Of a stretch of 64,000 nt of DNA, positions 3,681 through 54,350 are shown piece by piece. This stretch comes from Candidatus Coproplasma sp. (GTDB lineage Bacteria > Bacillota > Clostridia > Christensenellales > Borkfalkiaceae), in assembly GCA_051892535.1 (NCBI GenBank), contig JBJFGI010000041.1, forward strand, positions 20,585 through 84,584. The letters are read 5' to 3'. Position 1 is the stretch's first letter; the number at the start of each line of letters is the position of its first letter. Below the pieces are notes generated by a model. That model was not told the DNA's origin, searched no databases, and saw only the letters and a list, made by a program, of their open reading frames with translations. The translations under genes were made by a program, and so were the position numbers.

Positions 3681-3950
3681 TACCGTGCTAAGTGGGGAGT
3701 TAGCGGTGCCCTGTACCCGCAATCCGCTATAGCGGGACCGAACCGCCCCTCTCGACGACTAAAGTGGAAAGCAGTCCTTTATAAGGAGTGTTGATAACAA
3801 GGTCTTATGCAACTTTTCGCCGTGAACCGTGTCAGGATAGGGATATAGCAGCACTAAGCGGAGTGACGAGTGTGCCATAAGGTAGCCTTGTAGTAGCCAC
3901 CTGTAAAGGTAACGTTTCGGCTTTATTCGGCAAAAGGGACTGCACGGCTT
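3681..3950 (+). ncRNA. ffs: Signal recognition particle RNA, long Bacillus/Clostridium form with Alu-like domain (scRNA)
   Basis: CCCTGTACCCGCAATCCGCT matches the B. subtilis scRNA Alu-domain segment CCUGUAACCCGCAGUCCGCU. GTGTCAGG...GGGA...AGCAGCACTAAG matches the domain IV consensus GUCAGGUCCGGAAGGAAGCAGC. The 5' ACCGTGC pairs with the 3' GCACGG, and a T-run follows. There is no ORF. Confidence 0.85.
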
Positions 3951-12937: not shown

Positions 12938-13693
12938 TTATATTTTTTTTAAACCGCCACGTTCGGCGCTGTAATTATCGAAAAAATAGGTGAGCAGACC
13001 AAAGCACTCGCTGATATCCTTTATTCGGGTGACGGGGTGGGTTAAGCCGTCGCTGCCGCACTCTATCGTGTAGGCGGGAATGGACAACTTCTTTATACAC
13101 CAATCCTTATAGCCGCCTGCGCTGCCCTTTATTACTTTGGGATGATAGCCCGTGTATGCAGAGATGATATTTGCCCCCGATTTATCCCCGAAGCCGCCGT
13201 ACTCCCAGTAGATTTCTCCGCCCTTGGTGTGAAAGCTTAACGTGACGAATGGCGCAACTCGGGTTGTGAAACGAGCTAACGAAGCCGATTCGGGTTCGGA
13301 CAAAGGATAGTCGCCTATACAGTTTTCGGCACCCCTCACCGTGGTATTGAGGACGCCTGTCCCCCAGTCGGCATCGAAATTACAGTTGAGGTCGACCCCA
13401 CGAAAATTTGCCTTCCATAGCGGTTTTTTCGTTTGGGATATCACGGCTCCGTCGGGGTTTAAAAGGGGAATTATCCAGCCGCCGCAAGCCACCTTTTGTC
13501 TGATAAACTTCAAGGCGAGCCGTGAACATATCCACTCCCTTGCGTGGGTCGTACTGACGGCTATGAACTGTCTGCCGTAATTTTTGCCGACGTGAAAGGC
13601 GTATATTTCCCTGCCCTGACAGGAATAACCTATCACACACTTTTTGCTCTTGTAAGAAGCGTATGCCGCAACTACCTCTTCGTAAATGTCCAT
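12938..13693 (-). CDS. M14-family zinc carboxypeptidase-like protein (gamma-D-glutamyl-diamino acid peptidase-like)
   Basis: An HxxE zinc motif (THAREWI) and NPDG, 251 aa. No SD is visible in front of the ATG. Confidence 0.65.
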   Translation of the reverse strand: MDIYEEVVAAYASYKSKKCVIGYSCQGREIYAFHVGKNYGRQFIAVSTTHAREWICSRLALKFIRQKVACGGWIIPLLNPDGAVISQTKKPLWKANFRGVDLNCNFDADWGTGVLNTTVRGAENCIGDYPLSEPESASLARFTTRVAPFVTLSFHTKGGEIYWEYGGFGDKSGANIISAYTGYHPKVIKGSAGGYKDWCIKKLSIPAYTIECGSDGLTHPVTRIKDISECFGLLTYFFDNYSAERGGLKKI

Positions 13694-13730
13694 ACGACAT
13701 TATACGAAAATAATATTAGTTGTATGATTA

Positions 13731-13964
13731 GATAGACGAAACCGCCCCATCGCTGATTGTTTTAAGCAGAAAAAATTTTGATAGACACAAAAGCAGTTTT
13801 TTTTGTATTTTTTCTGCTTAAAACCGCAAAGCGTCTTGAATAGAAGATTTTTGATCCTGCCAAGGCGAGTGGTTGCAGGCGTACACGGACGTACGTCAGG
13901 ACCGCTCAACACAGGCAGGGGCAAAAAGATACATTCAAGAAATTAGTGCTTGGAGTGGTTTTGT
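13731..13964. repeat. Copy A of a structured repeat family of about 230 nt (130-nt core at 13821-13950)
   Basis: It aligns along its whole length with 40099-40331. The core is 122/130 identical and folds into a long hairpin spanning 13834-13940. It fills the whole rlmH to M14-peptidase intergenic region, starting right after the rlmH TAG. Confidence 0.85.
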
Positions 13965-14402
13965 CTATTTATGATATTCGCTGCCGCCGTTAATCATAAA
14001 GGCTCTGTATATTTGCTCTAAGAGAATTACCCTCATCAATTGGTGGGGGAAGGTCATATCCGAAAAGGACAGTTTTAAATTTGCCTGAGCCTTTACGCTG
14101 TCGTCCAGACCGCAGGACGAGCCTATTATAAAGGTTATTTCCTTGCCGCTGTCGCACAGCGACTTAACCGTCGATGCGAGCCGTTCGCTCGAGTACTTTT
14201 CACCCTCTACGCACAGAGCTATTTTATAACCCGTACACGCCTTTAAAACGATGGGAGCCTCCTCCTTTAAACTTTTCCCCTCTGCAAGCTCTTTAATCTC
14301 CAGCTTACAAAAACGGGAGAGACGTTTGGAGTACTCGGCAATAGCCTCCCTTAAATAACCCTCTTTAATTTTACCTATACAGACGATATTGACCTTAATC
14401 AT
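13965..14402 (-). CDS. rlmH: 23S rRNA (pseudouridine1915-N3)-methyltransferase
   Basis: N-terminal IVCIGKIKEGYLREAIAEYSKRL and C-terminal PHQLMRVILLEQIYRAF are typical of RlmH. Confidence 0.9.
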   Translation of the reverse strand: MIKVNIVCIGKIKEGYLREAIAEYSKRLSRFCKLEIKELAEGKSLKEEAPIVLKACTGYKIALCVEGEKYSSERLASTVKSLCDSGKEITFIIGSSCGLDDSVKAQANLKLSFSDMTFPHQLMRVILLEQIYRAFMINGGSEYHK

Positions 14403-20485: not shown

Positions 20486-20946
20486 ACTCTATGAGGTGAG
20501 GGAAAACCCCAAACCGTTAAAACTTAATAGAAAAAAATTTCTGCTGTGTGCGTGATATGATTGATGCTTAATCCACTAAGTTATTTAAGGGAGCGGTAGT
20601 TTGCAGGAATAGGCAAGGTCTGAAACAGAATTCGGAAAGTCCGACTTTCTCTGCTCCTCCGCACCCACCTGCGAGATGCGGGTTAATACTTTTTCATACA
20701 CGGCATAAGCGGATTTTTTTATTTTGCAAATTATCTATTTGCGATTTTATTTAGTTGATTTTTAGGCTGTATTGCCGTAAAATTATATCTATATTAATAC
20801 GGTAAGCGTTTTAGCTTCTCTCTTGTGGGAGAGTAAGGCGAGAACCGACGGCGGGAGCGTACTCTTGTGAGTACGTTACCGGAGCGTAGTCTGACACAGC
20901 AAAAGCGATGTTTATCGCACAAGAATATTTAAAAGAGGTAAAGTTT

Positions 20947-23160: not shown

Positions 23161-24060
23161 TTAAATACCGAATATATCTTTACTGTCTGCATTATCTTCC
23201 GACAATGCGTTGTAGGGATTGGTCTTGTCGTAGGTCAAATGTACGAACAGCTCTTCAATAGTTGGAATTTTGCTCTTTATATTCTCACCCGAAAGTGAGG
23301 TATCGGTTGTTATAAAGGTATAGCCGAACATACTCTTTTTAACGCCTATAGCACAATTTTGCATCTCTTCGGTGAGCTCGTCGGTCTGCACAAGGCGGTA
23401 CCTTTCGGCAAGCGTTTCCTTGTCCTCGTTCAGCGTTACTTTGCCGCCGTCCATCATTACTATGTAGTCGGCAATCTTGTCTAAATCTTCGGTGATATGG
23501 GTGGAGAATAACACCGTCTTGCTCTCGTCGAGCATAAACTCCTGAATAAGCGACACCACCTCTCCCCTGTCGAACGGGTCTATTCCCGAAGTGGGTTCGT
23601 CCAAAATGAGAATATCCGCACCCTGACACAGGGCTAAGATAAGGCAGTATTTGCGCTGCATACCCAAAGAATATTTGGTTATTTTTTTGTCGGAGGGCAG
23701 ATTGAACTTTTCCATAAGTTCGTTGTACCTCTGCAAGTCGAACGACGGGTAATAGCTCTGATATATTTTAACCAGCTTTTTGGGCTTGACAAAAGTATTG
23801 AAATGGGGACTATCGAACACACAGGCAATTTGGGAGAGTATCTCCACCTCGTTTTCGGCAAAGCTCTTACCGTTATATAAAATCTTTCCGCCCGAAGCGT
23901 TGTACTGACGCATTATCGTCTTTATAAGCGTCGTTTTGCCTGCGCCGTTCTTGCCGATAAGCCCCGTTATTGCGCCCTGCTTAATTTCAAGGTTAATATC
24001 GTCGAGCTTGAAGCCGCCAAGGTCTACCGTTAAATTTTTGATTTCAAGACCGTTACTCAT
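23161..24060 (-). CDS. ABC transporter ATP-binding protein
   Basis: Walker A GKNGAGKTT, signature YSLGMQRK and Walker B ILILDEPTSG. Confidence 0.9.
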   Translation of the reverse strand: MSNGLEIKNLTVDLGGFKLDDINLEIKQGAITGLIGKNGAGKTTLIKTIMRQYNASGGKILYNGKSFAENEVEILSQIACVFDSPHFNTFVKPKKLVKIYQSYYPSFDLQRYNELMEKFNLPSDKKITKYSLGMQRKYCLILALCQGADILILDEPTSGIDPFDRGEVVSLIQEFMLDESKTVLFSTHITEDLDKIADYIVMMDGGKVTLNEDKETLAERYRLVQTDELTEEMQNCAIGVKKSMFGYTFITTDTSLSGENIKSKIPTIEELFVHLTYDKTNPYNALSEDNADSKDIFGI

Positions 24061-24434
24061 AAGTTTTCCTCGCTACACACTTTTTCAACTATTTCGGTGA
24101 ATTTTTCCTTGGGTAGGTTATTGAGCTTTGCCGCCTGCACCGCAAGCCGCAACTGCTTTTCAATTTCAAGGTAGGAGATTTTGTCTATTTTCTCCCTTGT
24201 GAGATTGGCGACAAATACGCCCTTTCCCTGCACTGAGTAGGTAAAGCCCTCCGCCGCAAGGTCGTCGTAGGCACGTTTTGCCGTGATTATCCCCACCTGT
24301 AACTCCTTTGCCAGCATACGTATCGAGGGCAACATCTCGTTGGGAGCCAGACTGCCGTTTAATATCTGTTCCTTTATCTGCCCCTTTATCTGTTCGTAAA
24401 TGGGACCTTTTTCCAAGTCTAAAAGAATGTGCAT
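24057..24434 (-). CDS. GntR-family (YtrA subfamily) transcriptional regulator
   Basis: PIYEQIKGQIKEQILNG....LPSIRMLAKELQVGIITAKRAYDDL is a winged HTH with a short C-terminal part. The start is set at the ATG at 24434. Confidence 0.85.
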   Translation of the reverse strand: MHILLDLEKGPIYEQIKGQIKEQILNGSLAPNEMLPSIRMLAKELQVGIITAKRAYDDLAAEGFTYSVQGKGVFVANLTREKIDKISYLEIEKQLRLAVQAAKLNNLPKEKFTEIVEKVCSEENL

Positions 24435-24466
24435 ACTTTCACCGATTATCAAGTGTTTCTACTGTT

Positions 24467-24520: not shown

Positions 24521-24595
24521 GTTGACAAAACCGCCGTCCGAATGTGTTTCGGAGTTGACAAAACCGCCGTCCGAATGTGTTTCGGACGGCGGTTT
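24521..24595. repeat. Terminator-like hairpin preceded by a tandem 33-nt duplicate of its left arm
   Basis: gttgacaaaaccgccgtccgaatgtgtttcgga occurs at 24521-24553 and at 24554-24586. Only the second copy is completed by cggcggttt, giving the hairpin at 24560-24595. Confidence 0.85.
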
Positions 24596-24608: not shown

Positions 24609-25232
24609 TTATCTTATAAAGTTGGTCTTAACCTTATTTATGATTACGGGTTTTTCAAGGTCGGTACCCTTTGCAGAGTCGAGCAGTTTTAAAAGCCATA
24701 CCATATTGGAGGCGATTGCCCTCATAATTGTTATGCCCTCCTCGTCCTTTGCCGCATCGGCGGCGTTTGCGCCGAAGGTCATATTCCAATAGGTTGAGGG
24801 AACCTGAAGCATTGAGTTAATCTGTATGTACTTGTTTAATACGTCGTAGGAAGCAGACGTGCCTGCCCTACGTGCCGCAACTACGCTTGCGGCGGGCTTG
24901 AACTTCATATACTTGCCGTATGCGTAGAACAGTCTGTCTAAAGTTGCCACCATTGCGCCAGAGGGCGAAGCATAGTGAACGGGTGAGGCGAAGATATAGC
25001 CGTCAGCCTCCTTGACCTTTTGACCGATTGCATTTACGGGGTCGTCGTCGAATACACACTTACCCGTCTTCTGGCAGCTTAAGCAGCCCATGCAGCTGTG
25101 CACGGCGGCGGTGCCTAAACATACCACTTCGCTGTCTACACCCTGCGCCTTTAACTCGTTTACTATCGTATCCAAAGCGAAACTCGTCGTTCCGTCCTTG
25201 TGCGTACTGCCGTTAATCAATAATACTTTCAT
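24609..25232 (-). CDS. Flavodoxin-fold NAD(P)H-dependent FMN reductase-like protein (iron-sulfur flavoprotein-like)
   Basis: MKVLLINGSTHKDGTT together with the Cys cluster CMGCLSCQKTGKC. Confidence 0.65.
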   Translation of the reverse strand: MKVLLINGSTHKDGTTSFALDTIVNELKAQGVDSEVVCLGTAAVHSCMGCLSCQKTGKCVFDDDPVNAIGQKVKEADGYIFASPVHYASPSGAMVATLDRLFYAYGKYMKFKPAASVVAARRAGTSASYDVLNKYIQINSMLQVPSTYWNMTFGANAADAAKDEEGITIMRAIASNMVWLLKLLDSAKGTDLEKPVIINKVKTNFIR

Positions 25233-37747: not shown

Positions 37748-39661
37748 TTACTCTTCCGAGGTACCCGTAGTTGTCGTATCTTCCGTAACGGGAGTTTCTT
37801 CTTCAGCCGTTGTATCTTCCGTAACGGAAGTTTCTTCGGTGGTTGCCGTTGTTTCTTCAACGGGTGTTGCCTCTGCGGTTGCCGTTGTCTCTTCTACGGG
37901 TGTAACTTCGGTAACTGCCGCTGCTTCTACTGCAACGGGAGTTGCTTCGGTAATTGCCGCTGTCTCTTCAACGGGAGTTGCCTCTGCGGTTGCCGTTGTC
38001 TCTTCTACGGGTGTAACTTCGGTAACTGCCGCTGCTTCTACTGCAACGGGAGTTGCTTCGGTAATTGCCGCTGTCTCTTCTTCTACGACGGGAGTTTCTT
38101 CCGCAGCTGCCGCCACCTCTTCAAAGAACTCTATGCGGAGCGAGGGAAGGCGGTAGAAAATCTTTTGAGGCTTTAACTGCCTTTCAAGCGCCTTGGGCAC
38201 GTTTGCAAGGTGGAGCGAAACGCAACCTACAAACGCCTGTCTGCCTATGCGCCTTACCGATTGAGGTATGTCTATTGCCACAAGCGATCTGCAGTTTAAA
38301 AAGGCTACTTCGCCGATATCCGTCAAGCCGTTGGGCAGGTTGATTTCACGCAGTTCATAGCAGTCTGCAAACGCCCATTCGCTGATTGATACGAGGGTTT
38401 TAGGCAATACCACCTTTTGCAGGTTTTCGCAGTGGGAGAATATACCCTCTGAAAGGGAAGTGATACTCTCGGGAATAACAATGCTTTCAAACGAAATGCA
38501 GAAGTCGAACGCCCTGCGGCTGATGGTCTTTAACGATGTGGGGAGTACAATCTCCTTTAACGCACTGCACGCCCTGAATGCGTCTGCACCGATAAATTCA
38601 AGCGAGTCGGGCAGGGTAATACTTTCAAGCGAACGGCACGAAGCGAATGCACCGTCGTCAATCATTTTCAGCGCCTGAGGCAGGTTGATTTTCGTGAGCT
38701 TATCGCACCACGAGAATGCGTTTTTGCCGATAGTGTTGAGTTCTTCGGGGAGTTCAACCGAGGTTATAGCGCAGTTAGAGAATGCGTCTGCACCGATAGA
38801 ACGGATATATACGGGCACCTTGATATCGGTTGCCGAACCGATATACTTAACCACCTTGTCCTCTTCGATTAAAAAGCCGTTGTCGTTGACGAGATTTTTA
38901 TGGGTTGCGCCTGCATCTCTATCCACCATGGGAATGATAGCCGACATTCTGTCCTCTAAGCTCTCGTCCTCGTCAATGCCGTCGAGGGTGATGTCTTCGT
39001 GAGGTCCTATCTCCTCTTCCTCTTCTTCCTCTTCTTCAACCTGCTCTTCGGGCTGTGCCTGTACGGGCTGTTCCTGTACGGGCTGCTCTTCGGAAACCTG
39101 TTCGGGTTGTTCCTCTTCCGTCTCCTGAACGGCGGATTGTTCTTCAACGACCTCTTCGGGTTCATCTTCGGGCGTGTTTTCAGGCTGGGCAGGCTGCTGT
39201 GTGGGAGCGACCTGTTGAACGATATTGTTGTTGACAATTACGTAACCGCCGAAACGGCCGACTGCGTCGAACATATCCTCGTCCCTTATTCCCGAACTTA
39301 AGTATGCGTCTACCGTGTCGAAGTAGTCGGAATAATCCTCGTCCTCCGCAGGTGCGTCGGGGGAGGCGTAAAAACGGAAATAGATATTTGCGTTTTCAGG
39401 GAACACCTTGCCGCCCTTTGCCCTTGCAAAAAGTCTGCCGGGAAGCGTGACGTCCTCTAAATTGTCACACCCGAAAAACGCCCCTTTGCCTATTGAAAGA
39501 AGCTTGTAGGGAAGGACTACCTTCCTTAAAGTTTTACAGCCGGCAAAGGCGAACGGCGCAATACGCAAAACGTCCTTGGGCAAAACAAGTTCTTCCGCCT
39601 TGCCCGTATACCTTAACACCGTAGCCTTTTCAATACGTAATCCGTTAATGTTTTCAGCCAT
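37748..39661 (-). CDS. BspA-type leucine-rich repeat protein with an acidic linker and T/E/A/V-rich C-terminal tandem repeats
   Basis: Repeated units of the form I...AF..C..L..I.LP in two blocks. A poly-E/Q/P linker separates them, and the C-terminus contains 37-aa tandem repeats. I see no signal peptide. Confidence 0.7.
   Translation of the reverse strand: MAENINGLRIEKATVLRYTGKAEELVLPKDVLRIAPFAFAGCKTLRKVVLPYKLLSIGKGAFFGCDNLEDVTLPGRLFARAKGGKVFPENANIYFRFYASPDAPAEDEDYSDYFDTVDAYLSSGIRDEDMFDAVGRFGGYVIVNNNIVQQVAPTQQPAQPENTPEDEPEEVVEEQSAVQETEEEQPEQVSEEQPVQEQPVQAQPEEQVEEEEEEEEEIGPHEDITLDGIDEDESLEDRMSAIIPMVDRDAGATHKNLVNDNGFLIEEDKVVKYIGSATDIKVPVYIRSIGADAFSNCAITSVELPEELNTIGKNAFSWCDKLTKINLPQALKMIDDGAFASCRSLESITLPDSLEFIGADAFRACSALKEIVLPTSLKTISRRAFDFCISFESIVIPESITSLSEGIFSHCENLQKVVLPKTLVSISEWAFADCYELREINLPNGLTDIGEVAFLNCRSLVAIDIPQSVRRIGRQAFVGCVSLHLANVPKALERQLKPQKIFYRLPSLRIEFFEEVAAAAEETPVVEEETAAITEATPVAVEAAAVTEVTPVEETTATAEATPVEETAAITEATPVAVEAAAVTEVTPVEETTATAEATPVEETTATTEETSVTEDTTAEEETPVTEDTTTTGTSEE
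37841..38085. repeat. Tandem 111-bp (37-codon) repeat, about 2.3 units, inside the LRR protein gene
   Basis: The units start at 37878 and 37989 and are identical over the first 96 nt or so. A partial unit begins at 37841. A separate 36-bp repeat lies at about 37775-37845. Confidence 0.9.
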
Positions 39662-39834: not shown

Positions 39835-40065
39835 TTACAAGCTCTCGTGAATGGTACGGGAGATAACCTCGTCCTGCTGTTCCTTTGTGAGCTTGTTGAA
39901 GTTTACCGCATAGCCCGATACCCTGATAGTGAGCTGAGGATACTTTTCGGGGTGTGCCTGTGCGTCGAGAAGGGTCTCCCTGTTGAAGACGTTGACGTTT
40001 AAATGATGACCGCCGTCTGCTACGTATGCGTCCAACATCGTTACTAAATTATCTGCTCTTGACAT
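39835..40065 (-). CDS. Glycyl-radical domain polypeptide (C-terminal 76 aa of pyruvate formate-lyase, GrcA-like) encoded as a separate ORF
   Basis: [45 protein letters not shown] is collinear with the E. coli PflB and GrcA C-termini and includes the radical glycine motif RVSGYAV. Its own AAGGAG SD lies 7 nt upstream of the ATG. Confidence 0.85.
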
Positions 40066-40331
40066 ATCTGTTTTCTCCTTTTTGTTATTTTGTGTTGGTA
40101 GATGGAATTGCCCTTATCGCTAATTGTTTTAAACAAAAAATTCTTTGCTGAATTTATGGACAATTGTATTTGTAAATTTTTTGCTTTAAACCGCAAAGCG
40201 TCTTGAATAGAAGATTTTTGTTCCTGCCAAGGCGAGTGGTTGCAGGCGTACACGGACGTACGTCAAAACCGCTCAACGCCTGCAGGGGCGAAAAGATATA
40301 TTCAAGAAATTAGTGCTGAGGGTAATTTCGT
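40066..40331. repeat. Copy B of the structured repeat family, forming the 266-nt spacer that splits pflB (130-nt core at 40188-40317)
   Basis: It is homologous to 13731-13964. The core is 122/130 identical, and a second hairpin and a further block are also shared. It starts directly after the TAG that ends the 676-aa ORF. Confidence 0.85.
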
Positions 40332-42362
40332 CTACTCGTCTTTGCCTAAGCTTGCAGGGGTTACCGAGAAGGTGTTGGAAATGCCGTCTCTGCTGTATTC
40401 GTAGGGCAGTTTTGCAACCGACTCCAGCGAAGCCAGAGCGCCGTTCGTATCCCTGCCGTGCATGGGGTTGGCACCGGGGGCTAAGGGGGTTCCCGCCCTT
40501 CTTCCGTCGGGGGTGTTGCCCGTCTTTTTGCCGTAGACTACGTTGGAGGTAATTGTCAGAATCGAAGTCGTGGGAATGGAGTTGCGGTAGGTATAGTGGC
40601 TTGATATCTTGCTCATAAAGGTCTTGACCAGCCATACCGCTATATCGTCCGCCCTGTCGTCGTTGTTGCCGTACTTGGGGAAGTCGCCTTCCGTCCTGAA
40701 ATCAACTACCAACCCGTCCTCGTTGCGGATGGGATATACCTTGGCGTACTTGATTGCGGAGAGCGAGTCGACCGCACAGCTTAAGCCTGCTATACCCGTT
40801 GCAAAGAAACGGCGTACGTTGGTGTCGTGCAGCGCCATTTCAAGCGCCTCGTAGGAATATTTATCGTGCATATAGTGTATGAGATTTAATGTGTTGACGT
40901 ATAGACCTGCAAGCCAATCCATCATCTGCTCGTACTTCTCTATTACGTCCGCATAATCGAGGGCGCCGTCGCCTGTGATAGGTGCGTATTTGGGGGATAC
41001 TTGCAGGGGTTTGCCCGTCTTTTTGTCACGGGTGAGCTCGTCTGCGCCGCCGTTGATTGCATATAAAAGGCACTTTGCAAGGTTAGCCCTTGCGCCGAAG
41101 AACTGCATGTCTTTACCCACTCTCATACAGCTTACGCAGCAGGCTATGCAGTAGTCGTCACCCATCTCGGGTCTCATCAAATCGTCGCTCTCGTACTGAA
41201 TCGCAGACGTTTCGATAGACGTCTCTGCGCAGAATTTCTTAAATGCGTAGGGCAGATTTTTAGACCAGAGGACGGTGAGGTTGGGCTCGGGTGCAGGACC
41301 TAAATTTTTTAAGGTGTGGAGAATTCTGAATGAACTCTTGGTGACCAACGTTCTGCCGTCTATACCCATACCGCCGATTGACTCGGTTACCCAGGTGGGA
41401 TCGCCTGAGAACAGCTCGTTGTAGTCCTTGATACGCATAAACTTAACAATCCTCAGCTTCATTACGAAGTGGTCGATAAGCTCCTGCGCCTCTACTTCGG
41501 TTAACCTGCCCTCCTTTATATCCCTTTCGATATAGATGTCGAGGAAGGTGGAGTTTCTGCCGATGGACATCGCTGCGCCGTTCTGATCCTTGACCGCACC
41601 GAGATAGCCGAAGTACAGCGCCTGAATAGCCTCCTGTGCGGTGCGTGCAGGCTTGGAGATATCCTTGCCGTAGATCTGCGCCATCTCCTTTAAGGCTTTA
41701 AGGGCTTTAATCTGGTCGGAGAGCTCCTCCCTGTCCCTTACCCTGTCGGGGGTCATATCGCCGAGCATTAACTCCTTATCGTGCTCTTTATGCTTGATAA
41801 GGTAGTCCACGCCGTAGAGGGCAACCCTTCTGTAGTCGCCTACGATTCTGCCCCTGCCGTACGTGTCGGGCAGACCGGTGAGGATATGTGCAGTACGGGC
41901 ACGGCGCATTTCGGGAGTATAGGCGTCGTACACACCGTCGTTGTGCGTCTTGCGGTACTTGGTGAATATGTCCTTGACCTCGCTGTCGAGCTCGTAGCCG
42001 TACATATTCAGCGCCTGCTCGCTCATCTTAATGCCGCCGAAGGGCTGAAGGGCACGTTTAAAGGGCTCGTCGGTCTGTAAACCGACAATCTTTTCAAGGT
42101 CTTTATCTATATACCCTGCGCCGTGGCTGGTGAGCGTGGAGATGGTTCTTACGTCGGCTTTTAATACACCGCCAGCCTCCCTCTCCTTTTTGGTAAGTTC
42201 CATAACCTCCGCCCAGAGCTTTTTAGTCGCTTCGGTGGCGTCGGCTAAAAAGCTCCCGTCGCCTTCATAGGGGGTGTAGTTGTGCTGAATAAAGTCCCTT
42301 ACGTTTACTTCGTCTTCGCTCCATTTACCGGGCGTAAAGCCCTCCCATTGTTCAAACTGCAT
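40332..42362 (-). CDS. pflB: Pyruvate formate-lyase, N-terminal 676 aa (catalytic barrel, lacks the glycyl-radical domain)
   Basis: It is collinear with PflB and contains the catalytic Cys-Cys motif (IACCVSCM). It ends ...SLGKDE-TAG, where E. coli PflB continues GKDDEVRKTNLAGL. Confidence 0.9.
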
Positions 42363-42684: not shown

Positions 42685-43404
42685 TCACCTGTTGCAAAGT
42701 ATCGCCTTTGCGTTTTTTACCCTCTCCGCCGTGGGAGGCTGTACCCCCTCGAGCGGATAGCTCAGCCCAAGCTTTTCATACTTGACGACGCCCATCGTGT
42801 GGTAGGGCAGAATCTCTACCTTTTCCACCGTCTTTAAGCTTCCGATAAAATCCGAAAGGCTATATAGGTATTCGTCGTTATCGGTTATCCCCGGCACTAA
42901 TACGTGCCTTATCCACATCGGCTTGCCTATGTCGGAGAGGTGTCGGGCAAAGGCTAAGATATTTTTATTGTCCCTCTCCGTGAGGCGTTTATGCTCCTCG
43001 GGGTCGATATGCTTGATATCAAGTAAGACAAGGTCGGTATAGCTTAACAGCCCGTCTATCCCGTCTTTGTTCGCCTCGGAGAATACCGCGCCCGAAGTGT
43101 CTAACGCTGTGTGAACGCCGTTTGCCTTAAGTAAAGAAAACAGCTCCTTGACAAACTCCGTCTGAAGCAGGGGCTCGCCGCCGGAGACGGTGACTCCTCC
43201 GCCGTTTGCAAAATAGTTTTTATACCTAAGTGCGTTTTTTGCAACCTGTTCCGCCGTGTACTCCGTACCGCCGCTCACTGCCCAGGTGTCGGGGTTGTGG
43301 CAGTATTTACACCGCATAGGGCAGCCCTGCATAAACACTACGAACCTTATTCCCGGCCCGTCTACGGTGCCGAACGATTCAAACGAATGTATCCGCCCTG
43401 TCAC
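42685..43404 (-). CDS. pflA: Pyruvate formate-lyase activating enzyme (radical SAM)
   Basis: DGPGIRFVVFMQGCPMRCKYCHNPDTW and GGVTVSGGEPLLQ motifs. It has a GTG start with an AAGGGGG SD. Confidence 0.9.
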   Translation of the reverse strand: MTGRIHSFESFGTVDGPGIRFVVFMQGCPMRCKYCHNPDTWAVSGGTEYTAEQVAKNALRYKNYFANGGGVTVSGGEPLLQTEFVKELFSLLKANGVHTALDTSGAVFSEANKDGIDGLLSYTDLVLLDIKHIDPEEHKRLTERDNKNILAFARHLSDIGKPMWIRHVLVPGITDNDEYLYSLSDFIGSLKTVEKVEILPYHTMGVVKYEKLGLSYPLEGVQPPTAERVKNAKAILCNR

Positions 43405-43429: not shown

Positions 43430-43584
43430 AAAAAAAGGGCAATCTACTTAAATTACCTTTAAGTGATTTGCCCAGACGAACGGCTAAAAAAGGTTATCAA
43501 GACGAAAAGTCGAAAAATCCACTTTGCCTTACGCCACTCCCCTGCGGTAATTTCCGCTAATGCCTCGTCAGTTATGGCGCACCC
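43430..43584 (-). promoter_or_regulatory. ZTP (pfl-motif) riboswitch with an intrinsic-terminator expression platform
   Basis: The minus strand has P1 GCGCCA/UGGCGU, a junction UAACUGACGA, P2 GCGG-AAAUUA-CCGC, then AGGGGAG. After a linker comes CCGUUCGUCUGGGCA. For comparison, the Thermosinus aptamer as I recall it reads UGACUGGCGAA...GUGGGAAACCAC-CGGGGAG...CCGCCUGGGC. The GGGCAA is the 5' arm of a roughly 15-bp terminator followed by U7 (43430-43473), directly upstream of the pflA SD. Confidence 0.75.
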
Positions 43585-43599
43585 TTGATTTGTGAAATG

Positions 43600-43629
43600 A
43601 TTATAGCACACCCCCATTTACGTTGTCAA
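43600..43629 (-). promoter_or_regulatory. Sigma-A type promoter (extended -10) of the pfl operon
   Basis: On the minus strand, TTGACA at 43629-43624, an 18-nt spacer, then TGCTATAAT with the hexamer at 43605-43600. Confidence 0.65.
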
Positions 43630-43699
43630 TAGTTTTATATCAAAATATTGATTGAAATTTTTTACCAAAACACAACATATTGTGGTTAGGCGTAACAAT

Positions 43700-43898
43700 C
43701 TCTACCCCTAATTGTTCTAAGCGAAAAATTCAAGCGTTCCGCTTGACCAGAGTATCTTAATTGCTGGTGGATTGATTGTATAATCACTAATCAAACAAAT
43801 CCTTTTGCAGTACGTCACTGTTCAGCTGCAAGAACATCCACAACTTTCTCTTTGAATTTTTCAGCTTATAACCGCAAAGCGTCTTGAATAGAAGTGCT
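43700..43898. repeat. Copy C of the repeat family, lacking the core hairpin and carrying an enlarged second-hairpin loop
   Basis: 43864-43898 (gcttataaccgcaaagcgtcttgaatagaagtgct) matches both flanks of the core in copies A and B joined together. The second-hairpin arms (aagcgaaaaatt at 43720-43731 and aatttttcagctt at 43856-43868) and the taattgtt block are shared. It starts 29 nt after the spoVAC stop. Confidence 0.6.
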
Positions 43899-43927
43899 AT
43901 AATTTGCCATATATTAGCCATATTTTG

Positions 43928-51965: not shown

Positions 51966-54350
51966 TTATTTTAAGGTTACTATAGTTACGCCTATCTCGC
52001 CCTCGCCATAGGCGCCCGAGCGGAATTCCTTAACACCCCTGTGCCTTTTTAAAAGCTGGGCAATTGCCGCACGGAGTTTGCCCGTGCCGACGCCGTGAAT
52101 TATTTTAACCTGCTCTAAATTGTCGGTAATGGCTTTATCTAAAAAGTTTTCCACCTCGGGCAGGGCTTCGTCAACCGTCATACCTATTACGTTTATTTCA
52201 AAATTGGGATTGGAGGGGGCAAACTTCTTGACCACCTTGACCCTCTCCCGTGAATGGCTGCCTGAGTTTTTAGCCGCCGTACTTGCCCTGCGTGCAGGCT
52301 GAATTTTAAGCGTCTTGATATTTACCCTTAACTTTATCTGTCCGCAGGCTACCTCCGCCTCCCCCTTTGCAGGGTTAAATGAGAGGATTGTGCCGTTTGA
52401 ACCCATACTCTCGACAAAGACTTCTCCGCCGACTACGATATCCTCTTTGGTTGCCTGCCTGAGCCCGATTTCGGGGCGGAGCTCGCCCTCGTCGTAAGCC
52501 TCGTCGGCTATCTGGTTTTTAAGCGTTCTCGCCTTGATTAAATCGGCTTGGGTTACCGTTTCCTTGTTGAATATCTCTTCAAGCTCTTCTAAAAGCTCCG
52601 TAGCCCTTGCCGTACGCTCGCCTATAATTCTGCGGCTTTCGGCTTTGGCACCCGAGGTTAAGCTGTGCCTCTCCCTCTCAAGTGCGGCAAGCGTCTTTTT
52701 TGCCTCGTCGCTCTTCTGCGCCCATTCGCTCTCAAGCGCCCTTGCCCTCTCTAATGCGGCGGTGGCTTCTACCCTTGCATCCTCCGCTCGTTTGATGATA
52801 TTGTCGTACCTACGCCCTTCGTCGGAGAGATATCCATCTGCCTTTTTCAATATCTCGGGGCTCATGCCGAGCCGCCTTGAAATTGCGAGGGCGTTGGAGG
52901 CGCCGGGCATACCTATTTTAATCGTATACAGCGGTTTTAACGTTGCGCTGTCAAACTGCATTGCGGCGTTTTCTATACCGCCCAGGGAATACGCAAACTC
53001 CTTCAAGGCGGTGAAGTGGGTGGTTATTATGCCCTTTGCACCCGCATTGAGCAGGTGTTCGCAAACCGCCGAGGCGAGCGCCTGACCCTCGTCGGGATTG
53101 GTGCCGCCGCCGAGCTCGTCGATTAACACTAAGCTGTCGCCGTCCGCACCGTTGCAGATGTCGATTACCCCCGTCATATGGCTTGAGAAAGTCGATAAAC
53201 TCTCCTCAATGCTCTGGCTGTCGCCGACGTTGCAGAATATCTTTGAAAAGGCACAAACCTCCGTTCCGGGTGCGGCGGGAATAAACAGACCGCACTCCGC
53301 CATAAGGCAAAACAGACCCGTCATCTTCAAGGTTACGGTCTTGCCGCCCGTGTTGGCACCGCTTAAAAGCAGGAAGGAATAGTCCTTACCCAGCTCTAAC
53401 GATACAGGGACGACCTTGTCCTTATCTATTAACGGGTGTCTGCCCTTGACTATGTTTATATAACCACGTTTGTTGACCTGGGGGCAGATTGCCTTAACCG
53501 AATAGGCGTACTCGGCTTTTGCGTAGCAACAGTCGACTTCGGTCAATATTTCGATATCAGTCAATAGCTTGTCCCGCATTGCGCCGACACGTGCCGAGAG
53601 GGCTTTTAAAATCCTCTCCACCTCTTCCCTCTCGTCTATGGTCAGGGCGATGAGCTCGTTATTTAAATTTAATACGTACTCGGGCTCTATGAAAAAGGTT
53701 GCGCCCGACGCCGAACGGTCGTGAATGAAGCCTTTGACCTTACTCTTGCTCTCCGCTTTGACGGGTATGACGTACCTGTCGTTACGCATTGTGACTATGC
53801 TGTCCTGCAGATACTGCGCATCCCTGCCCGAAGCGTATTCGGCAAGCGTCGAGCGGATGCGTTCGTTGAGAATTTTTATCTTTGAACGAATGGTGTAGAG
53901 TGCGTCGCTGGCGTAGTCGCTGACCTTGTCGTTCGATATAATTTTTTCCTCGATGTCTCTCTCCAAGTTTTCGTCAAAGTAGACGTTCTGAACGAGCTTT
54001 TTAAGCAGAGTTACGTCGCCGTCGGTTGCGTTTATTGCACGGAAAGTCGTGCGGGCGGAGCGCAGAAGGCAGTTGACCGAGAGCAGTTCGCCGCAGCTTA
54101 ACGCCGAACCCTTGGAAGAGCGGACGAGCAAATCGGTTACGTCCTCGAAGTACTCCACCTTGCCTACGCCGTACTTGTATAACAGCAGGTCGCCCTCGGC
54201 GGTAAAGCTTAACCGCTCCCTCACCTGAGTTAAATCACCCGTAGGAAGGGTTGCGCAAATAGCACTCTTCGCCGAGTCGAGTACGGCAAAGCTTGCGCAC
54301 GAGGTTAATATTTTATTGAGTTCAAGTCCGCTGTAATTTTGTTGAGTCAT
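51966..54350 (-). CDS. mutS2: Endonuclease MutS2
   Basis: Walker A GANTGGKT and DELGGGTNP, a coiled-coil middle and a C-terminal Smr domain (IHGVGTGKLR). Confidence 0.95.
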   Translation of the reverse strand: MTQQNYSGLELNKILTSCASFAVLDSAKSAICATLPTGDLTQVRERLSFTAEGDLLLYKYGVGKVEYFEDVTDLLVRSSKGSALSCGELLSVNCLLRSARTTFRAINATDGDVTLLKKLVQNVYFDENLERDIEEKIISNDKVSDYASDALYTIRSKIKILNERIRSTLAEYASGRDAQYLQDSIVTMRNDRYVIPVKAESKSKVKGFIHDRSASGATFFIEPEYVLNLNNELIALTIDEREEVERILKALSARVGAMRDKLLTDIEILTEVDCCYAKAEYAYSVKAICPQVNKRGYINIVKGRHPLIDKDKVVPVSLELGKDYSFLLLSGANTGGKTVTLKMTGLFCLMAECGLFIPAAPGTEVCAFSKIFCNVGDSQSIEESLSTFSSHMTGVIDICNGADGDSLVLIDELGGGTNPDEGQALASAVCEHLLNAGAKGIITTHFTALKEFAYSLGGIENAAMQFDSATLKPLYTIKIGMPGASNALAISRRLGMSPEILKKADGYLSDEGRRYDNIIKRAEDARVEATAALERARALESEWAQKSDEAKKTLAALERERHSLTSGAKAESRRIIGERTARATELLEELEEIFNKETVTQADLIKARTLKNQIADEAYDEGELRPEIGLRQATKEDIVVGGEVFVESMGSNGTILSFNPAKGEAEVACGQIKLRVNIKTLKIQPARRASTAAKNSGSHSRERVKVVKKFAPSNPNFEINVIGMTVDEALPEVENFLDKAITDNLEQVKIIHGVGTGKLRAAIAQLLKRHRGVKEFRSGAYGEGEIGVTIVTLK

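Follow-up and report, generated by a model that had tools for sequence, protein, structure and literature searches.

Results

A repeated structured element between genes

The DNA analyzed here, referred to as the window, is a 64,000-nucleotide stretch of a Candidatus Coproplasma contig. Coproplasma is a genus of Clostridia that has been reported from chicken, grouse, and mouse gut samples. The window contains three copies of a non-coding, hairpin-rich repeat that probably belongs to a new family of small transposable elements. Copy A lies between rlmH, the open reading frame (ORF) upstream of it on the minus strand (13965-14402), and an M14 peptidase gene. Copy B is placed between pflB-N (40332-42362, minus) and a grcA-like gene (39835-40065, minus), and copy C is truncated (Table 1). 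An earlier sequence-only reading described the rlmH and pflB spacers as homologous, with both copies opening at the TAG of the upstream gene on the minus strand, and both statements are correct. A recount of the 130-nt core (13821-13950 against 40188-40317) reproduced the 122/130 identical positions first reported. The full elements are identical at 197/238 positions, and a 34-mer is exact in copies A and B where 0 are expected by chance. Repeat detection in the window returned a 174-nt pair (88% identical) together with part of a third copy at 43845-43894.

The arms of the variable hairpin match at 100% in copy A (13759-13776/13807-13824) and at 88% in copy B (40126-40142/40175-40191), which bears out the second hairpin with a variable loop that the sequence-only reading had noticed. 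That reading found no terminal inverted repeats (TIRs) or target duplications and saw the similarity fade gradually. The absence of TIRs and the gradual fading do not stand, and a target duplication is probable. Repeat detection places TIR arms of 21 nt at 81% in copy A (13729-13749/13951-13971) and of 35 nt at 74% in copy B (40098-40132/40301-40335), there is a TA at both ends, and the aligned copies have sharp boundaries. The "conserved block ttaaaacaat..agcgat..gggc..tcta" is the left TIR, which pairs with the right end. In copy C, the remaining core and the right TIR are deleted.

Table 1. Copies of the element in the window and their parts (TIR, terminal inverted repeat).
Feature	Position	Strand	Remarks
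Copy A, complete	13733-13967	+ (strand folding best)	235 nt including the TA at each end; boundaries from the 17-copy alignment
Copy A, left TIR TAGACGAAACCGCCCCATCGCTGATTG	13733-13759	+	5' strand of the closing helix
Copy A, variable hairpin	13759-13824	+	18-bp perfect AT-rich stem; loop not conserved
Copy A, small invariant hairpin CGC-AAA-GCG	13825-13833	+	
Copy A, core, 107-nt irregular hairpin TCTTGAAT...ATTCAAGA	13834-13940	+	Apical loop ACGGAC and internal loops conserved
Copy A, right TIR	13941-13967	+	Last three bases, CTA, are the rlmH TAG stop on the minus strand
rlmH stop TAG	13965-13967	-	Formed by the target TA and the element's first G; TAA in 7/7 empty-site relatives
Copy B, complete	40099-40334	+	236 nt including the flanking TAs
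Copy B, left TIR	40099-40126	+	
Copy B, variable hairpin	40126-40191	+	Loop diverged at 6/32 positions between orthologues, a near-neutral rate
Copy B, core hairpin	40201-40307	+	
Copy B, right TIR	40308-40334	+	CTA at 40332-40334 is the pflB-N TAG stop
Copy C, truncated	43687-43894	+	Left TIR (GGCGTAAC subfamily), long-form variable region, small hairpin, first 13 nt of the core

A dispersed family with sharp ends

An exact 20-mer common to the three window copies was used to scan one genome per prokaryotic species. The scan returned 15 loci, all in Candidatus Coproplasma or "uncultured Clostridia" metagenome-assembled genomes (MAGs), with nine in a single MAG. Outside the window, six Candidatus Coproplasma-like MAGs carry 15 more copies at 13 new sites, and the family totals 16 independent sites in seven genomes. 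Two loci are orthologues of window copies, L012 of site A and L010 of site B, with ~86% nucleotide identity over 8 kb. All 16 independent sites were found through one core 20-mer to which copies lacking that core are invisible, and the invariance of CCGCAAAGCGTCTTGAATAG is partly ascertainment because the scan used that 20-mer.

The 17 aligned copies are 179-331 nt long. Sharp ends of the form TAGAC...GTCTA, with TA on both sides, are present in 14 of them, and the flanks beyond are unrelated and have TA alone in common, with no longer motif. Imperfect TIRs of 27-35 bp are located at the copy ends. Differences in length come from the variable hairpin: L015 has none, L003 has one of 5 bp, and it measures ~65 nt in most copies and 110-170 nt in the long forms. 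The statement that no ORF is conserved also stood, as no frame is open across the copies and stops occur in most copies in every frame; the element has no coding capacity. One copy, L015 (7548-7726), is chimeric, with a left end of the GGCGTAAC subfamily and a right end of the GACGAAAC subfamily; its ends are unpaired and the variable hairpin is missing altogether. This copy appears to have arisen by recombination of two others.

Copy A, a long form, and a divergent form were searched against Rfam at gathering and permissive thresholds without a family match, in agreement with the sequence-only reading, which could place the repeat in no RNA family that it knew. The searches gave weak plant and animal miRNA-like matches to the AT-rich hairpin only, far below threshold. 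BLAST against phages and plasmids found no match. Two pattern scans of IMG/VR had no matches, and a third, loop-based pattern matched an unrelated phage coding region (L030-L037). A JGI metagenome scan found no copies; its seven loci (L016-L022) are unrelated AT-rich chance matches. Searches with nhmmer and a core covariance model (R1) over the window and related loci (~300 kb) detected nothing beyond the 17 copies and copy C. Judged by these scans, the family appears to be previously undescribed and confined to a few Candidatus Coproplasma-like gut Clostridia.

Empty sites identify a TA target

More than twenty orthologous loci in close relatives are without the element and have short, ordinary spacers. 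Site A is empty in L038, L041, L042, L053, L054, L056, and L058, which read CA(T/C)AAA-TAA followed by a 36-63 nt spacer, and it is filled in the window and L012, which read CATAAA-TA[GAC...GTC]TA. Site B is empty in L023 and L024 as GACGAG-TAA-(38 nt with AAGGAG)-ATG and filled in the window and L010 as GACGAG-TA[G...element...C]TA-(33-36 nt with AAGGAG)-ATG. Gene order in L023 and L024 is as in the window, and their GrcA-like protein is 97% identical to that of the window. Ten more loci are empty at site B, giving an empty set of L023, L024, and L043-L052. Copy C is found only in the window genome; the empty site reads ATC-TA-ACC in L010, L023, and L024, compared to ...GCC-TA-ACC in the window. 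The flank of this truncated copy (43895-43927) is ATATGGCTAATATATGGCAAAT, a local ATATGGC duplication that is not in the L010 empty site, which suggests that the right-half deletion came with a small rearrangement. The uvrB/uvrA site occupied in L007 is empty in L015. The three empty sites A, B, and C have a single TA where the filled sites have TA on both sides of the element. Together with the TA at both ends in 14/17 copies, these data are compatible with a duplication of TA on insertion and bear it out in part. A 3-bp TAA duplication was rejected; the junctions at sites A and B do not fit it.

The position of the element relative to genes follows from this target. At rlmH and pflB-N, the target TA is within a TAA stop, and TAG is regenerated from TA and the first G of the element. 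Insertions occur between co-directional genes (uvrB/uvrA, nrdD/nrdG, moxR/DUF58, and pflB-N/grcA); the upstream stop is 0-5 nt away on one side, and the next start is reached after 14-58 nt on the other. The sequence-only reading had placed the repeat right after stop codons. This is exact at three independent sites, A, B, and L007 (uvrB), where the terminal TAG is the stop codon. The distance is at most 5 nt at three others: the stop is 5 nt inside the end at L003 and a few nt outside it at L002 and L006, where the terminal TA has mutated. The remaining sites do not have the arrangement. Empty spacers contain 4-7 TA each, and by our own rough estimate an exact stop-codon position at 3/9 sites is not significant alone, whereas a stop within 5 nt at 6/9 sites is suggestive of a preference. 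The pattern arises because the element inserted into the TA of TAA stops, not through a dedicated function of the 3' untranslated region (3'-UTR). The variable outer TIRs were also compared by eye to the flanking target for a guide-like complementarity, and this inspection found no consistent match; site B has a short GACGA repeat.

The element is a covarying fold

The + strand of copy A is predicted to fold at -99.2 kcal/mol (z = -10.3 against shuffles) and the - strand at -79.4 kcal/mol (z = -6.6). Hairpins on the mRNA-sense strand are also stable, at -60 to -86 kcal/mol. The predicted consensus fold has a terminal helix formed by the two TIRs, the variable hairpin, the 3-bp CGC-AAA-GCG hairpin, and the 107-nt irregular hairpin. 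The last had been drawn in the sequence-only reading and is predicted on both strands at both sites. Over the consensus pairs, 96% of the cells are paired and 22/68 pairs have changed on both sides, a result that 0/500 shuffles reach. The compensatory changes are distributed over three helices. The terminal helix has 15 pairs, 95% paired over 17 copies, and 10 of the 15 have changed on both sides; the corresponding figure for the core alone is 11/41. In L002 and L008, ~20 stem positions are replaced, and the loop ACGGAC and its flanking internal loops are kept. In all 17 copies, the core folds more stably on the + strand, no matter how the neighboring genes are oriented. Relative to GC skew, this strand is the negative one at 12/16 independent sites (p = 0.08); relative to the flanking genes, it is antisense at 8-9 scorable sites and sense at 2-4.

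The long forms (L001, L005, and L013) reveal the architecture of the element. Their left arm is ~60% identical to the inverted right arm and folds as a mirror image of it; the two arms share the loop (A-A/C-GGAC) and have different stems. Both the core covariance model and nhmmer match the long-form left arms on the opposite strand. The ancestral element would then have been a near-palindrome of two inverted core modules, of which the left one decayed in the common 235-nt form. On this comparison, the variable hairpin of copy A is probably a remnant of an inverted core copy.

Copies A and B are conserved between two species

The orthologous comparison covers two loci in one species pair of MAGs. 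Copy A and L012 differ at 5/235 positions over the whole element, and the 39-nt spacer is also identical. The third codon positions of rlmH and the M14 peptidase gene differ at 138/397 (Fisher test against the copy A element, 4e-26). Copy B and L010 differ at 9/206 positions outside the variable loop, compared to 180/754 third codon positions in pflB-N and grcA (Fisher test, 5e-12). The loop of copy B differs at 6/32 positions, more than the rest of that element (test, 0.008). Overall, the orthologous copies are 94-98% identical and the third codon positions are 65-76% identical. The ZTP riboswitch in the window, 83% identical to its L010 orthologue, was used as a benchmark functional RNA. In the same genome pair, the small hairpin and core of both sites differ at 4/232 positions compared to 21/125 in the riboswitch (test, 3e-7). 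Four differences fall in the terminal helix of copy B, and + strand pairing is kept in all of them, including a G.T to T.G swap. In contrast, copy C occurs in the window lineage alone and has already been cut short.

In pflB and rlmH identity, the LOHA07 MAG is narrowly the sister of the window genome, with the empty L023 and L053 lineages next, so copies A and B look like single ancestral insertions. A recent interspecies transfer limited to the element could mimic the conservation at site A, where the loop and spacer are identical. It fits site B less well because the loop of copy B has diverged. These data indicate constraint on the folded element at rlmH and pflB: it may have been co-opted there as an RNA or DNA module of the gene junction, or versions with damage may be deleterious. 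The strand under constraint seems to be the one that lies antisense to the neighboring genes, and the molecule could be RNA or single-stranded DNA.

The split pflB and other features of the window

The 676-residue ORF at 40332-42362 (minus) aligns to residues 10-678 of E. coli PflB, and the 76-residue ORF at 39835-40065 (minus) aligns to residues 684-758. The first is the body of a pyruvate formate-lyase (PFL) that ends just before the glycyl-radical domain. The second, a GrcA-like tail gene, has its own Shine-Dalgarno sequence and ATG. PDB chain 38la_A (687 residues) ends at the same residue as the PFL body of the window, and thousands of stand-alone glycyl-radical proteins of 76-80 residues are found in Clostridia MAGs. 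The split PFL is seen at every empty site, as a stop, a 21-48 nt spacer, a Shine-Dalgarno sequence, and an ATG. The "pflB spacer" of the sequence-only reading is indeed a spacer, one that separates the PFL body from a glycyl-radical tail with its own gene in a naturally split enzyme. The pflB gene is not interrupted; the element entered a spacer that already existed in a split PFL and GrcA-like arrangement older than the insertion. A self-splicing intron in pflB was rejected: removal of the insert restores no contiguous ORF, and the split is ancestral.

The ZTP riboswitch (Rfam, 47 bits) is located at 43463-43585 (minus), upstream of a PFL-activase gene (42685-43404), and is preceded by a near-consensus promoter, TTGACA-18-TGcTATAAT, at about 43601-43631. 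Below the pflB genes, ORF 37748-39661 (minus) is a BspA-type leucine-rich-repeat protein gene. Its 3' part, encoding the C-terminal region, contains eight tandem in-frame repeat units of 36-42 nt (37770-38123), and this is the region least conserved relative to L010 (46-59% per 100 nt at 39000-39199). At the M14 peptidase gene (13691-13710, minus), CGTATAATGTCGT stands directly before the ATG with a -10 box 5 nt upstream and no Shine-Dalgarno sequence. The motif is common to the window, L012, L038, L041, L042, L053, and L054 (the spacers of five relatives were read) and suggests that the M14 peptidase mRNA may be leaderless. Two further RNAs score above the Rfam gathering threshold, the bacterial large signal recognition particle RNA at 3683-3947 (+, 178 bits) and 6S RNA at 20535-20719 (+, 65 bits). 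A perfect 33-nt tandem duplication at 24521-24586, a partial copy of the GC-rich hairpin AAAACCGCCGTCCGAATGTGTTTCGGACGGCGGTTT, lies between the co-directional minus-strand ORFs 24609-25232 and 24057-24452.

Discussion

We estimate a probability of about 0.65 that copies A, B, and truncated C belong to a new family of small (about 180-330 bp), non-coding, non-autonomous elements of the miniature inverted-repeat transposable element (MITE) type, mobilized in trans by an IS630/Tc1-mariner-type transposase that duplicates TA. The traits of a MITE are present: small size, no ORF, TIRs, TA termini, dispersed copies, and empty sites. Bacterial MITEs have TIRs and TA termini, measure 100-200 bp, and give transcripts in which the 5' and 3' ends pair into a long stem (PMC2229807). 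Those with TA termini include Correia/NEMIS in Neisseria, ERIC/IRU in enterobacteria, and RUP in Streptococcus pneumoniae, the last mobilized by IS630-Spn1 (PMC2229807). The transposase type is proposed because of the TA targeting and what is known of the IS630/Tc1-mariner superfamily and of RUP and IS630-Spn1. The element would be cut and pasted by a DDE transposase encoded elsewhere in the genome. At rlmH and pflB-N, it inserted into the TA of a TAA stop, and TAG was rebuilt with its first G. Such insertions would survive, as the upstream protein is not truncated and the downstream ribosome-binding site is untouched. Since insertion, the rlmH and pflB copies have changed very little in two species. 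Of the three roles suggested by the sequence-only reading, the non-autonomous mobile element is the one that stood; an origin as a host-evolved 3'-UTR element is excluded, and a small RNA gene finds no conserved promoter or terminator.

The family resembles Correia/NEMIS, ERIC/IRU, and RUP in its small size, lack of coding capacity, TIRs, 5'-TA-3' at both ends, TA insertion, and location in transcribed intergenic regions and operons. It differs from them in length (235-330 bp compared to about 100-170 bp) and in its fold, which is branched and has an inner hairpin of 107 nt. The outer TIR is hypervariable but complementary, the wobble is one-sided, and orthologues are conserved far beyond neutral expectation. 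There is also no sequence similarity to those families. Like the pneumococcal BOX, RUP, and SPRITE repeats, it is an interspersed structured repeat in Bacillota, and its terminal TAG supplies the stop of rlmH, pflB-N, and uvrB. BOX repeats encode the stop codon at the extreme 3' end of 36 genes (Croucher et al. 2011, PMC3049150). Unlike BOX, which is built of boxA-B-C modules in variable copy number, the stop overlap here comes from insertion into TAA, as shown by the empty sites.

Several observations weigh against the MITE proposal. An autonomous partner with matching ends was not found in ~330 kb of related sequence. Solo ends and insertion sequences with matching ends gave chance matches only, for example a 13-nt match at 51994 in the last codons of a 794-residue ORF (51966-54350). 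At sites A and B, the second TA is followed by a base other than the A that a TAA would leave, and the spacers have diverged; downstream flanks are too diverged for a base-by-base reading of the TA duplication. L003 ends in AAGAC...GTCTT, an inverted and not a direct repeat. The outer 12-14 bp of the TIRs are highly variable between copies and retain complementarity, and variable yet complementary ends are unusual for ends that a transposase reads as double-stranded DNA. Wobble pairs are asymmetric: over the consensus pairs, with 875 Watson-Crick cells, there are 83 G-U cells on the + strand compared to 14 on the - strand, and in the terminal helix 24 compared to 3. As it is the same in either orientation of the host genes, the asymmetry is a property of the element rather than an effect of local mutation. 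One-sided wobble suggests that a single-stranded nucleic acid is involved, and DDE transposition by cut and paste would need none. Finally, selfish copies at fixed loci should decay, and A and B have not. A plain cut-and-paste MITE leaves three features unexplained: termini that covary, wobble on one strand, and the near-invariance of copies A and B. Taken together, these features indicate selection of a single strand for its fold, at least at A and B.

These features would be accounted for if the element is recognized or used as a folded single strand, either RNA or single-stranded DNA. This could be structure-guided mobilization, an RNA intermediate or cofactor, or a domesticated mobile antisense RNA at operon junctions. 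In one version, by analogy to attC, REPIN, and IS200-type systems, a TA-flanked element would have ends that must pair with each other. We regard this broader alternative as unlikely, although it would explain the covarying termini, the one-sided G-U pairs, and the near-invariant orthologous copies.

A more specific proposal, and a distinctly improbable one, is a mobile structured RNA gene. The + strand would yield a folded RNA of ~235 nt, acting either in trans or in cis as an antisense RNA to the upstream 3' end, with the inverted-repeat ends as its carriers. The compensatory changes in three helices, the loops retained where stems are replaced in L002 and L008, and G-U pairs almost exclusively on the + strand are what such a gene would show. 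So are orthologous copies more conserved than a riboswitch and the pairing maintained through the terminal-helix changes of copy B. However, the element contains no conserved promoter or intrinsic terminator on either strand. Each copy has one promoter-like match, located in non-conserved sequence, and the variable loop is the only possible promoter region upstream of the core. At 8-9 of ~12 scorable sites, the + strand runs antisense to operons whose genes are closely packed. The mirror-image module of the long forms folds better on the opposite strand, a symmetry that fits transposon ends better, and there is no Rfam relative.

We consider it quite doubtful that the family is REPIN- or PATE-like, with an HUH (Y1) transposase of RAYT or IS200/IS605 type that reads hairpins and moves the element as single-stranded DNA. 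REPINs are reportedly REP doublets mobilized by RAYT transposases. The resemblance to them lies in two inverted self-folding modules able to pair mutually, compensatory change, and extragenic positions often just after genes. Strand-specific pairing that tolerates G.T, termini that are variable yet complementary, and the orientation bias relative to GC skew (the same side at 12/16 sites) are also consistent with this proposal. Like PATEs derived from IS200/IS605 and the omega-RNA scaffolds of TnpB and IscB, the element is non-autonomous and its ends are structured and strand-specific; if a structured RNA stopped at the right boundary of the transposon, it would look like such a scaffold. The target and the dimensions disagree. 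The sites have TA alone in common, whereas these families use 4-5 nt motifs without duplication, and PATEs and omega-RNA elements have no TIRs where the ends here pair mutually. The base before TAG varies (a/t/g/c), so there is no conserved GTAG motif, and the modules are ~140 nt compared to 20-40 nt for REPs. The better-folding strand is mostly on the leading-strand template, and IS608-type elements have the opposite orientation relative to replication. Neither a Y1 nor a RAYT gene was seen in the related sequence covered, and Rfam models of omega-RNA-type RNAs did not match the element. Membership in the REPINs is not supported by these comparisons.

An integron attC site was rejected. The ends are TAGACGAAAC...GTTTCGTCTA and not R''/R' core sites (RYYYAAC ... 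GTTRRRY) that bound a cassette ORF, and the genes flanking the element are core genes that are present without it. An intrinsic-terminator repeat (GC-rich stem and T tract) was rejected as well; neither copy has terminator-like sites.

Least probable is an immobile element evolved by the host for 3'-UTR or intercistronic processing and stability, or for copy B an intron-like insertion in pflB: positions right after stops inside operons, hairpins stable in the mRNA-sense strand, and the conservation of A and B speak for it, but more than twenty empty orthologous loci refute it as an origin, copies lie at unrelated loci in both orientations, pairing is poorer on the mRNA-sense strand, and the split PFL is widespread without the element.

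As a MITE, the element would be ordinary, one more family in an uncultured chicken-gut genus. It also holds a warning for annotators: what looks like a pflB "spacer" is an element inserted in a PFL that is split by nature. Covarying ends, strand-specific wobble, and fixed copies that change ~ten times slower than synonymous sites are unexpected of passive cut-and-paste debris. If these unusual features hold, the family would offer a tractable case of structure-dependent mobilization, or of the domestication of a mobile hairpin at gene junctions such as uvrB/uvrA, nrdD/nrdG, and pflB/grcA.

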